Assembly: GCF_003334405.1 (NCBI RefSeq)
Contig: NZ_QOWM01000011.1
Reading direction: 5' to 3' (one strand)
Source of the DNA: Escherichia coli
GTDB lineage: Bacteria; Pseudomonadota; Gammaproteobacteria; Enterobacterales; Enterobacteriaceae
DNA: 64,000 nt
Within the stretch, counting starts at the first letter, position 1. Each line of letters begins with the position of its first letter. Below, in pieces: positions 10,584 to 17,545 of the stretch. The position numbers and the translations under genes are program-made. The notes under the pieces were generated by a model. It did no database searches. It was given only the letters and a program-made list of their open reading frames with translations, and was not told where the DNA came from.

Positions 10584-10961
10584 AATAAATAGTATCCTGA
10601 AGGTGCATGTTGTTATCGATTTGCAACGAATGTTGTTCAATGTTGCAAACTGATAACCTTTTATTTTCACTTGGGAGAAAGGGGGTGATCGAGGTATATC
10701 TTTTTCTCCTTTCGCTATACATCCTAAGGAGTATTTCGGCGTGAAATTTTGATTTATTTCACATAGAGTTAGTGGTTTTTTATTTATTTAATGATTTTAA
10801 GTTTTTTAATTAATGTAATTACGAAATGACTCGCAGGTTTAAGTGATTTAATTGATTTAATGAATAAAATTTGCCACGATCATAATTAATATCTATGTAT
10901 TTTGATTCAACATTTTAATTACATCCGTCAAAGAGGCTCGGGACAACCCGCAAGGAAAACA

Positions 10962-13310: not shown

Positions 13311-14695
13311 TACTTGCCTGTGACCGCTGCTGCCGTTCCTGGCACCATCAGCTCTGTAGCAACGATAACAATCACCAAACCAACAAGCACCGGTACCGAG
13401 GTGCGTTTTACGACTTCAAACGGCGAGATCTTCGCCATCCCGGCAACCGCAACGACTACGCCAGAAACGGGCGAAAGGGTACGGCCAAGGTTTGACGCCT
13501 GCAGCATCGGGATAGTCAAATACGCCGGGTTAATGCCGGAAGAGTGCGCCAGTTTCGGGATCATCTCAACAAACGCATAAAACGGCGCATTGCCTGAACC
13601 GGTCGTGACTGCCGCCAGCATTGTCAGAATCACCAATACCAGCATCAGGATGATACTCGCCGAACCAAACGAGGTAGCGATAGAAATCAGACTTTGAATA
13701 AAGCCGATGGTGCTAAGCCCCTGAGCGAATACCCCAGCGGCAACCAGCAGCATCACCACGTTAGCAAACGCATCTGCCATCCCGCGATAAGCCACTTCCA
13801 GACCAGAGAAAACTTTCTGGGTATTAAAGCTGCGGAGGAACTCCAGAATGGAGGCAATCAGCATACAAATCACCAGAATAGTGATGATGTGTAATTGCGG
13901 ACCCCATTTACCGTCAAAAATCAGTACACCGATGATCGGCGTGAACGGCAAAATGGCATAAAACGCAGGAGCAGTGGTGGTGATTTCACTGACATCTAAC
14001 ATTTCATGAGAGATGTGCTCTTTTTTATCCAGATAACGTTGCCAGAAGAAGTGGGCGATCGCCATGCCGATAATTGCAGCAATTGAGATAGGCAGCGTCG
14101 TTTTGAAGGCGAAGTCAATCAGCGACATTTCGGAAGCTTGCGCCGCCAGCACCACATCCCCTGAAGTCGGTGCGAGAATAATCGCCGCCGGGGAGGCACA
14201 AATGGCAGCAGCTGCGCCACGACTGATACCAACGTTTACCATCACCGGAAATAGGGTTGCCATCAGCAAAACACCCAGACCGGTTGCGGAAGAGACGGCC
14301 AGAGACATCAGACAGGCGACAAAATAGGCGGCAATCATCAGCAGGTAAGGGGAGTTAATATACTGCAATGGTTTTGACGCCAGCTTGACCACCATATCAT
14401 TCGCGCCGATATGGGTCATGTAAGCGGCAAATCCACACAGCATCATAATCATCATGCCGAGGTCGCCGCCGCGGCTCATTAGTAATATTTTAACGTATTC
14501 AACGATATCCGTGGCGCTGTAGCCTGTTGAAGCCTGGCTGGACGGTAACACTTTGTGCCCCATAATGGCACTGATAATCAGCAATAACAGGCCACCGACA
14601 AATAACACACCAGTGGCGGAATACCCTTTAATGATGTAGCGAGCTACACCCACAATAACCACAACCCCAATAAGGAGCTCAATGAATGTCAGCAT
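13310..14695 (-). CDS. dcuC: Anaerobic C4-dicarboxylate transporter
   Basis: 461-aa polytopic membrane ORF recognised as DcuC. Confidence 0.9.
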   Translation of the reverse strand: MLTFIELLIGVVVIVGVARYIIKGYSATGVLFVGGLLLLIISAIMGHKVLPSSQASTGYSATDIVEYVKILLMSRGGDLGMMIMMLCGFAAYMTHIGANDMVVKLASKPLQYINSPYLLMIAAYFVACLMSLAVSSATGLGVLLMATLFPVMVNVGISRGAAAAICASPAAIILAPTSGDVVLAAQASEMSLIDFAFKTTLPISIAAIIGMAIAHFFWQRYLDKKEHISHEMLDVSEITTTAPAFYAILPFTPIIGVLIFDGKWGPQLHIITILVICMLIASILEFLRSFNTQKVFSGLEVAYRGMADAFANVVMLLVAAGVFAQGLSTIGFIQSLISIATSFGSASIILMLVLVILTMLAAVTTGSGNAPFYAFVEMIPKLAHSSGINPAYLTIPMLQASNLGRTLSPVSGVVVAVAGMAKISPFEVVKRTSVPVLVGLVIVIVATELMVPGTAAAVTGK

Positions 14696-14784
14696 AATTT
14701 TTCCTGTCTCCAGGCCCCAAAGTAAATAATAAAAAATTCCTAAAGCTTAAGGAAAAAATATGCCCAATAAATTGGCGATGAATG

Positions 14785-14798
14785 CTGATTAAAATCAA
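14785..14798. promoter_or_regulatory. Putative FNR binding site upstream of dcuC
   Basis: cTGATtaaaATCAA matches the FNR consensus TTGAT-N4-ATCAA at 9 of 10 positions, about 90-105 nt upstream of the dcuC start codon. Confidence 0.4.
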
Positions 14799-15283
14799 TA
14801 AAAACTGCCATTAAGACATTGAAGTTGCTGTTTTTATACATAGATAACAAAACGCATATTTAGCGGTTGGCAATTATCACATAATAATGTGTGCAAATTG
14901 ATGGTGGATTGATGCAAATTTGTTAATTGCAATGGTGTTAGCTGCGGCTGTGCGCTCAAAAAATAATCTAATATGAGCATAGGTTGACGATATATATTAT
15001 ATACTTCGTTAAGATGATTGTTGTATCTCGTTAAAAAATAAAATAATTTTTCCTTGATTGCATTTTGTCATCAAAAAAGACTTGGTTTTTCTTTTTTGAC
15101 TATTCCCATCGCAGAAAACGACGCATCATCTTTAATCGATGCGCGGAAATATTTAACTTGAACAAGCGGAAATAAATAGAGCAGCTATTCAGATTATTCT
15201 TTATGTTGGGTCTATTAAGGTTATGTTAATTGTAGCTTTGCTATGCTAGTAGTAGATTTTTGATAAATGTTTTATGGTCACAA

Positions 15284-15844
15284 ATGAACGTGAGTAAATA
15301 TGTCGCTATCTTTTCCTTTGTTTTTATTCAGTTAATCAGCGTTGGTAAAGTTTTTGCTAACGCAGATGAGTGGATGACAACGTTTAGAGAAAATATTGCA
15401 CAAACCTGGCAACAGCCTGAACATTATGATTTATATATTCCTGCCATCACCTGGCATGCACGTTTCGCTTACGACAAAGAAAAAACCGATCGCTATAACG
15501 AGCGACCGTGGGGTGGCGGTTTTGGCCTGTCGCGTTGGGATGAAAAAGGAAACTGGCATGGCCTGTATGCCATGGCATTTAAGGACTCGTGGAACAAATG
15601 GGAACCGATTGCCGGATACGGATGGGAAAGTACCTGGCGACCGCTGGCGGATGAAAATTTTCATTTAGGTCTGGGATTCACCGCTGGCGTAACGGCACGC
15701 GATAACTGGAATTACATCCCTCTCCCGGTTCTACTGCCATTGGCCTCCGTGGGTTATGGCCCAGTGACTTTTCAGATGACCTACATTCCGGGTACCTACA
15801 ACAATGGCAATGTGTACTTTGCCTGGATGCGCTTTCAGTTTTGA
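15284..15844 (+). CDS. pagP: Lipid A palmitoyltransferase (outer-membrane beta-barrel)
   Basis: ORF 15260..15844; start at [10 protein letters not shown]... gives the 186-aa precursor with a signal peptide. Confidence 0.9.
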
Positions 15845-16018
15845 GACAAATGAAGTTTTAGTAACTTCTTTAAAATCAATAGCTAAAATAAGTAACATCA
15901 AAAATAACGCGACTTTTATCACTTTTTAGTAAAGTTACACTGGACAAAGCGTACCACAATTGGTGTACTGGTAACCGACACAGCATTTGTGTCTATTTTT
16001 CATGTAAAGGTAATTTTG

Positions 16019-16228
16019 ATGTCTAAGATTAAAGGTAACGTTAAGTGGTTTAATGAGTCCAAAGGATTCGGTTTCATTACTCCGGAAGACGGCAGCAAAG
16101 ACGTGTTCGTACACTTCTCTGCAATCCAGACTAATGGTTTTAAAACTCTTGCTGAAGGTCAGCGCGTAGAGTTCGAAATCACTAACGGTGCCAAAGGCCC
16201 TTCTGCTGCAAACGTAATCGCTCTGTAA
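16019..16228 (+). CDS. cspE: Cold-shock-domain protein E
   Basis: ORF 15989..16228; start at [20 protein letters not shown] (69 aa) with the RNP1 motif KGFGFI. Confidence 0.95.
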
Positions 16229-16244
16229 GATACGTCAGCAAGAA

Positions 16245-16277
16245 TTCAAAACCCGCTTAATCAGCGGGTTTTTTTTG
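16245..16277. terminator. Bidirectional rho-independent terminator between cspE and crcB
   Basis: aaaacccgcttaatcagcgggttttttt: 7-bp stem flanked by an A-run and a T-run. Confidence 0.8.
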
Positions 16278-16751: not shown

Positions 16752-17545
16752 GTGGCAATGCTGGTTGCCGCAGGACAGTTTGCTGTTACATCTGTGTGGG
16801 AAAAGAACGCTGAGATTTGTGCCTCGTTGATGGCGCAGGCGGCGGAAAACGACGTATCGCTGTTTGTCCTGCCGGAAGCATTGCTGGCGCGCGATGATCA
16901 TGATGCAGATCTATCGGTTAAATCAGCACAGCTGCTGGAAGGCGAATTCCTCGGACTTTACGGCGAGAAAGTAAACGTAACATGATGACGACAATTCTGA
17001 CGATTCATGTTCCTTCAACGCCGGGGCGCGCATGGAATATGCTGGTGGCACTTCAGGCAGGAAACATCGTCGCCCGTTATGCCAAACTGCATCTCTATGA
17101 TGCATTTGCCATTCAGGAATCACGCCGTGTTGATGCTGGTAATGAAATCGCTCCGTTACTGGAGGTGGAAGGGATGAAGGTCGGTCTGATGACCTGTTAT
17201 GACTTACGCTTTCCAGAGCTGGCGCTGGCACAGGCATTACAGGGAGCTGAAATCCTGGTACTTCCTGCCGCCTGGGTTCGCGGGCCGCTCAAAGAGCATC
17301 ACTGGTCAACGCTGCTTGCCGCTCGTGCGCTGGATACCACCTGTTATATGGTGGCGGCGGGGGAGTGCGGGAACAAAAATATCGGTCAAAGCCGGATTAT
17401 AGATCCCTTTGGCGTCACCATTGCGGCAGCGTCAGAAATGCCTGCACTCATTATGGCGGAAGTGACGCCCGAACGTGTGCGTCAGGTGCGCGCGCAACTG
17501 CCCGTCTTAAACAACCGTCGCTTTGCGCCGCCGCAATTATTATGA
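16752..17545 (+). pseudogene. ybeM: Carbon-nitrogen hydrolase family gene disrupted by a frameshift
   Basis: Two consecutive ORFs in different frames (16752..16985 and 16982..17545) together resemble one CN-hydrolase protein; the frame break is near 16980. Confidence 0.6.

Follow-up and report, generated by a model that had tools for sequence, protein, structure and literature searches.

The dcuC–pagP intergenic region of Escherichia coli: a long, AT-rich two-way control region containing a conserved ArcA-type box

The spacer between dcuC and pagP

The 64-kb stretch of Escherichia coli DNA analysed here (the window, to which all positions refer) carries the divergently transcribed genes dcuC and pagP, separated by 588 bp at positions 14696–15283. 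On the minus strand, 14695 is the last position of the dcuC start codon; on the plus strand, the pagP ATG occupies 15284–15286. Nothing is annotated between the two genes in K-12 or in strain 300709, and open reading frames, annotation, base composition and published H-NS ChIP-chip data together define the interval as a divergent intergenic control region assigned to neither strand. When the 588 bp were used as a query, strain 300709 was 100% identical and K-12 differed by one base, and the spacer occurred once per genome in 5,382 of 5,426 complete E. coli genomes. It has previously been used as a neutral insertion site.

The initial annotation, made from the sequence alone, had singled out this gap as unusually long and very AT-rich, with long A/T tracts, and the figures bear this out. 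Its G+C content is 0.313 (31.3%), compared with 0.506 for the window, and it forms the G+C minimum among 588-bp stretches of the 64 kb; equally AT-rich stretches of that size make up 0.11% of the total, every one of them overlapping the spacer. Among the 41 spacers in the 40.6-kb annotated stretch it is the longest, followed by spacers of 378 and 371 bp. Twelve A/T runs of 5–6 nt were counted within it. Short local repeats are also more frequent than in shuffled sequence (8 overlapping 7-mer pairs against a shuffle mean of 1.4, P ~0.003, with the caveat that overlapping k-mers are not independent).

To follow the spacer beyond E. coli, a PagP scan restricted to one genome per species was used, which yielded 80 enterobacterial loci; dcuC is the divergent neighbour of pagP in 48 of them, and these, together with two E. 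coli records (L001 and L002), constitute the 50 spacers analysed. AT-richness is common to all lineages and length is not: the spacer measures about 290 bp in Klebsiella and Raoultella, 390–440 bp in many Enterobacter, 403 bp in Salmonella arizonae, 410–465 bp in Citrobacter and 558–588 bp in Escherichia. In an alignment of 11 representative genera and species (alignment A1), both ends are conserved and the middle is unalignable. Five E. coli alleles compared with the window sequence differ from it by 1–4% on the dcuC side (14696–14939), 10–19% in the core (14940–15130) and 1–6% on the pagP side (15131–15283), whereas fourfold degenerate sites of dcuC and pagP diverge by 6–17%. The two flanks are therefore subject to purifying selection, and the core changes within E. 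coli at least as fast as neutral (synonymous) sites.

Several observations concern the surroundings of the spacer. In the clinical genome of E. coli MINF_8D (L086), an IS1 insertion is accompanied by loss of dpiB, dpiA, dcuC and most of the spacer (from about 15134 leftward), leaving only its pagP-proximal 150 bp. Downstream of pagP, the leader and gene of cspE are spanned by a match to the Rfam cspA thermoregulator at 15834–16276 on the plus strand (124 bits, E = 1e-32), and a very strong sigma70 ChIP-seq summit lies in the cspE region at about 15976. The next neighbour considered, ybeM (deaminated glutathione amidase, about 16752–17545, plus strand), is annotated as frameshifted in strains 300709 and ATCC 8739 and as intact in Z247 and 7CC.

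Promoter modules at the two ends

The dcuC-side module comprises an FNR box and a core promoter. The FNR box, CTGATtaaaATCAA, occupies 14785–14798, matches TTGAT-N4-ATCAA at nine of ten positions and has an invariant core in alignment A1 from Escherichia to Klebsiella; it is present in 47 of the 50 spacers. Closer to the gene, the block TTATTgGGCAyATT (dcuC strand, 14757–14770) is conserved in the 11 genera or species, with constant, indel-free spacing to the FNR box and ten invariant positions (14757–59, 14761, 14763–64, 14766–67 and 14769–70). Within this block lies the predicted −10 element of the FNR-dependent promoter, CATATT at 14757–14762 on the minus strand (CACATT in other genera), which implies a transcription start near 14750. 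The probable Shine-Dalgarno sequence of dcuC, as read from the same strand, is AGGA at 14702–14705, 6 nt before the ATG.

At class II FNR promoters, the FNR box is centred at −41.5. The dcuC arrangement fits this geometry, since its box would lie at about −41.5 from the predicted start near 14750. The published 454-based start, supported by 4 reads (Mendoza-Vargas 2009), lies 38 nt upstream of the ATG, which converts to 14733 on the minus strand and would place the box at −58.5 rather than −41.5. Genome-wide binding data from Myers et al. bear directly on this module: a bound FNR motif, CTGATtaaaATCAA, was reported at 655,281, equivalent to window position 14785, with an FNR ChIP-seq summit at 14802 and a ChIP-chip peak as well. 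The same study found dcuC to be FNR-activated, with expression about 20-fold higher anaerobically, listed its start as "not in peak region" and placed an anaerobic sigma70 ChIP-seq summit at 655,235 (window 14739), at the dcuC core promoter. This summit fits either start. On this reading, FNR bound to the box at 14785–14798 switches dcuC on under anaerobic conditions.

Two further details of the dcuC side were recorded. A candidate anti-Shine-Dalgarno pairing between 14750–14763 and 14692–14705 (inverted repeat I5) was rejected, as its upstream arm lies at or before the predicted start and, by inspection of alignment A1, the complementarity is lost in Citrobacter. Directly 3' of the FNR box, position 14799 is T in the window (ATCAAT) and G in K-12 and in the other four alleles. 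An identical 60-mer around this position was found in 107 of 4,638 genomes, a count whose interpretation is blurred by the search itself, a 60-nt megablast that requires a 28-nt exact word.

The pagP-side module consists of a PhoP box beside a −10 element. The −10 element TATGCT (15242–15247, plus strand) lines up with TATTAT, the −10 element mapped in Salmonella, so that transcription would start near 15253–15254. The box, TATTAAggttaTGTTAA at 15213–15229 on the plus strand, ends 12 nt before the −10 element and differs at three positions from (T/G)GTTTA-N5-(T/G)GTTTA; in alignment A1, a TGTTAAG block conserved across genera corresponds to this site in E. coli. The literature places the PhoP site of crcA 32 bp from the start (44 bp in Salmonella) with three bases that depart from the consensus, and both the position and the mismatch count of the box agree with this description. 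The suggestion that PhoP acts at pagP was thus well founded. The site lies one helical turn nearer the start than its Salmonella counterpart because a different hexamer pair is used in the two organisms: of three in-phase hexamers in Salmonella, the distal pair is the one used, and only the proximal pair remains in E. coli. A first candidate box, TCTTTAtgttgGGTCTA at 15198–15214, was set aside, given that 15213–15229 fits the conserved block, the published distance and the mismatch count. PhoP binds this box, which overlaps the −35 position of the pagP promoter. Myers et al. placed a sigma70 ChIP-seq summit at 655,742 (window 15246), on the pagP −10 element, with an approximately 10-fold rise anaerobically, and found pagP expression to be 3.4-fold higher anaerobically.

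Additional elements were noted around this promoter. The sequence GCGGAAATA occurs upstream of it at 15143–15151 and 15166–15174, 23 bp apart; the pair is kept in the five E. coli alleles, and in other Escherichia species only the second copy is conserved. A genomic SELEX peak for RpoN/NtrC has been reported for the dcuC/pagP spacer. Inside the pagP gene, sigma54 ChIP-seq has been reported to mark TTGGTAAAGTTTTTGCT at 15342–15358 on the plus strand as an intragenic site (position 655,846 in that study).

An ArcA-type box at the near-repeat

Upstream of the FNR box, on the plus strand, lies the near-repeat GCAAATTGATGGTGGATTGATGCAAATTTG at 14893–14922, in which two copies of ATTGATG (14897 and 14908, 11 bp apart) are interleaved with two copies of TGCAAATT (14892 and 14913, 21 bp apart). 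The initial annotation had reported this repeat at about 14894–14924, and it is indeed present, shifted by one or two bases. When the spacer is shuffled with its dinucleotides preserved, 2.2% of the shuffles contain a comparable interleaved cluster. The near-repeat is more than noise: nothing else in the spacer matches the box of the oxygen-sensing regulator ArcA as well as its second half, which is also kept across genera.

For this comparison, a matrix of the 18-bp ArcA box was rebuilt from the 115 boxes in Table S3 of Park et al.; it reproduces the published scores within 0.6 bits. The box in question, TTGATGCAAATTTGTTAA at 14909–14926 on the plus strand, scores 16.0 bits and consists of two direct repeats 11 bp apart. 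No other match in the spacer reaches 15 bits, and the 64 kb of the window contain just one more. An additional repeat, TTGATGG at 14898, lies one helical turn upstream of the box and scores weakly (−1.3 bits with the 7-nt single-repeat matrix). The second-best match in the spacer, TTGTTATCTATGTATAAA at 14833–14850 on the minus strand, reaches 13.3 bits and is a weak candidate conserved in Escherichia only.

Taken alone, a 16-bit match in E. coli DNA of this AT-richness has a probability of about 0.04, and the comparison across genera adds considerably more. Although the phylogenetic relatedness of the loci overstates their independence, a box scoring 12 bits or more on the same strand, 150–260 bp from the dcuC ATG, was found in 32 of the 50 spacers, compared with 1.8 expected from shuffles; at a threshold of at least 15 bits the count was 18 against 0.3, and the exact skeleton TGAT-N7-TGTTAA was recovered from 24 against an expectation of 0.1. 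The box occurs in Escherichia, Citrobacter, Enterobacter, Lelliottia and Salmonella, in surroundings that are themselves unalignable. Its distance from the FNR box is 86–141 bp, and that from pagP ranges over 70–549 bp owing to lineage-specific insertions. Within E. coli, the box is invariant in the five alleles and the adjacent bases vary. On this comparative evidence, the near-repeat appears to be an upstream element of the ArcA type that is conserved at the dcuC promoter, and it may serve both genes.

The published record on ArcA at this locus is mixed. Park et al. reported that the dcuC/crcA spacer contains an ArcA-matrix site scoring at least 15 bits, detected no enrichment of the spacer by ArcA ChIP during anaerobic growth on glucose and classed the effect of ArcA on dcuC and pagP as probably indirect. 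In published expression data, dcuC is down 4.1-fold and pagP 2.8-fold in an arcA mutant. We somewhat favour ArcA as the protein that binds the box at 14909–14926. Most likely, phosphorylated ArcA would bind this box, some 125 bp further upstream of the FNR box, and would aid activation of dcuC.

The element could instead be bound by a regulator other than ArcA, for example PhoP at a distal box or another member of the OmpR/PhoB family, or it could be kept for structural reasons such as H-NS or Fis positioning. The missing ArcA ChIP peak speaks for such a reading. The half-sites of PhoP and ArcA are also alike: the PhoP box at pagP in Klebsiella and Raoultella scores 11–12 bits with the ArcA matrix, and, read as a PhoP box, 14909–14926 has four mismatches compared with three in the functional crcA box. 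Furthermore, a second, upstream PhoP box is known from the literature at Salmonella pagP. However, the repeats TGTTAA, TGATAA and TGTAAT, with A in the fifth position, suit the ArcA matrix better than the PhoP GTTTA motif. Where insertions part the two genes, the box moves with the dcuC FNR box and not with pagP, and both flanking genes depend on arcA. We consider a binder other than ArcA, or a structural role, unlikely.

An ArcA-type element at dcuC has parallels among the promoters co-regulated by FNR and ArcA. As at focA-pflB and cydAB, an FNR box lies near the core promoter with an 18-bp, two-repeat ArcA-type box upstream, and dcuC is likewise induced anaerobically and, according to published data, lower in fnr and arcA mutants. 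A difference is that ArcA occupancy was not detected by ChIP at the dcuC–pagP spacer. Its ArcA-type box would also lie about 168 bp upstream of the predicted start, a position unlike that of most ArcA sites, which repress and overlap the promoter.

Boxes of this type were also encountered elsewhere. In five Enterobacter-clade loci (L035, L036, L040, L044 and L045), TTGTTACATAAACGTTAA or close variants scoring 14–19 bits lie about 190–210 bp upstream of pagP, and in a further locus (L052) a box of the TTGTTACATAAACGTTAA type at spacer position 573 is linked to pagP. In the loci with a pagP-linked box, dcuC is not adjacent or a long insertion is present. Their arrangement suggests that pagP can own a box of the ArcA type. 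Within the window, the top ArcA-matrix match, ATGTAATTAAAATGTTGA with 18.9 bits, lies at 10907–10924 on the minus strand in the citC–dpiB spacer. That spacer is also AT-rich and divergent, and the site is absent from the ArcA ChIP and expression tables of Park et al.

The AT-rich core and the overall reading

Between the two promoter modules lies a hypervariable AT-rich core (14940–15130) with no detectable sequence constraint, which is unalignable to other Escherichia species or to other genera. H-NS occupies it together with its flanks. Myers et al. delimited two regions by H-NS ChIP-chip, 654,590–655,558 and 655,584–656,283, which correspond to window positions 14094–15062 and 15088–15787 and together span the whole spacer and the 5' parts of dcuC and pagP. 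Their Table S6 lists the FNR motif without nucleoid-protein overlap, even though their H-NS region spans it. Shimada et al. likewise marked the spacer as an H-NS site by genomic SELEX, and a pagP–lacZ fusion is 18-fold up in an hns mutant. The expectation that this DNA is an H-NS target is thus correct, and it had already been published. The idea of curved or phased A-tracts fared less well, as the AA/TT periodicity of 10–11.5 bp is not significant in the spacer (P = 0.12). The H-NS nucleation motif TCGATAAATT is not enriched either, its best occurrences in the spacer being two matches with two mismatches each. Given that neither significant phasing nor a good nucleation motif was found, H-NS binding is best attributed to plain AT-richness.

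Silencing by H-NS and its relief connect this region to the regulation of pagP. The gene is activated by SlyA, for which three putative sites have been described, and is induced in biofilms in a manner dependent on RcsB/GadE. On the basis of this literature, the pagP promoter is silenced by H-NS, with SlyA and RcsB–GadE opposing the silencing. In this respect E. coli pagP resembles Salmonella pagP, pagC and ugtL, which share a PhoP direct-repeat box beside the −10 element, H-NS-bound AT-rich upstream DNA and counter-silencing by SlyA. A difference is that pagP is an ancestral gene and was not horizontally acquired. IS5 insertions into the spacer are recurrently selected under kanamycin, which fits the idea that disruption of the silenced region alters pagP expression.

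The core itself would serve as a spacer and a platform for H-NS, carrying no specific information and drifting fast. It probably grew in the Escherichia lineage, and this growth would account for the unusual length of the spacer.

The initial annotation had also suggested that the region might hold an unannotated regulatory RNA, and published data offer a single hint of a transcript. For Shigella flexneri, a 295-nt RNA named Ssr31 has been predicted on the pagP strand of the pagP/dcuC spacer, with a positive RT-PCR and no other support, and a genomic SELEX study predicted mid-spacer sigma70-like sites, ATGACA-17-AATTAT towards dcuC and TTAAGA-17-TAAAAA towards pagP. RT-PCR alone, however, does not tell a discrete RNA from read-through or spurious transcription. 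Within the spacer, sigma70 ChIP-seq summits lie at 14739 and 15246 only, both at the core promoters and none between them, and promoter-like sites are not enriched (2 against 4.4 expected). An Rfam scan of the spacer at E values up to 10 returned noise only (a plant snoRNA at E = 3.4 and RT-8 at E = 6.8). Sliding-window RNA folding of both strands gave a mean z-score of −0.28, with 2 of 100 windows below −2, which is the chance level, and no terminator-like site was found on the plus strand. On the minus strand, the scan matched a terminator-like hairpin at 15121–15144 that is not conserved and probably not functional: its stem pairs are broken without compensation in alleles Z247 and ATCC 8739. 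An A/U hairpin at 15071–15099 is similarly broken by uncompensated substitutions in other alleles. The middle is, moreover, the least conserved part of the spacer. These findings speak against the suggested regulatory RNA, and an equivalent of Ssr31 encoded on the pagP strand in the centre of the E. coli spacer is in our view very improbable.

Small proteins were considered in the same way, by checking all open reading frames of at least 20 codons' worth of amino acids (≥20 aa) in the spacer of five E. coli alleles. Each small frame in the core is broken in at least one of the five. Two frames are intact in all of them; these begin with TTG and run across the conserved dcuC promoter. We conclude that the spacer hides neither an RNA gene nor a small protein gene.

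That the extra length derives from a lost gene or mobile element that has since decayed is scarcely credible: some Enterobacter and Kosakonia spacers of 650–1015 bp do contain gene fragments or inserted DNA, and IS5 and IS1 do insert in the dcuC–pagP spacer, but blastn and tblastx searches of 14820–15210 against all 80 related loci returned Escherichia spacers only, no phage matched, matches in the plasmid collection were mislabelled E. coli chromosomes only, the sequence occurs once per genome, and a search for terminal repeats found none. The longest of these spacers, 1015 bp in Kosakonia oryziphila (L054), contains open reading frame fragments that by eye resemble pieces of a large inner-membrane efflux pump. 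If this identification is correct, the enlargement represents an insertion that has decayed and has no relation to the E. coli core.

Taken together, the spacer is a known, ordinary and largely characterised two-way control region of E. coli. With a probability of about 85%, we read it as two constrained promoter modules split by unconstrained, H-NS-coated AT-rich DNA, with no hidden gene. It resembles the 750-bp sensory integration region of gadE and the csgD–csgB spacer in being long, AT-rich, covered by H-NS and addressed by several regulators. Unlike in those regions, the middle third of the dcuC–pagP spacer is without sequence constraint, so that the spacer owes its length to drift and expansion and not to closely packed sites. 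The length and AT-richness are explained by known biology, and their significance is small beyond bookkeeping.

A direct role of ArcA is the only small new lead to emerge from the spacer. What is added here is cross-genus support, drawn from sequence comparison, for the view that a published, unvalidated ArcA-matrix match is a real constrained element tied to the dcuC promoter. A bolder proposal, which we hold to be possible but not probable, is that 14909–14926 is a shared site from which phosphorylated ArcA acts directly as a co-activator of the two divergent promoters, perhaps by counteracting H-NS. If true, the published classification of dcuC and pagP as indirect targets would be corrected, and dcuC, perhaps with pagP, would join the direct ArcA regulon. 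If confirmed, the site would provide a case of far-upstream ArcA activation within H-NS-bound DNA. Under this proposal, lipid A palmitoylation through pagP and succinate efflux through dcuC would be coupled to the redox state of the cell.
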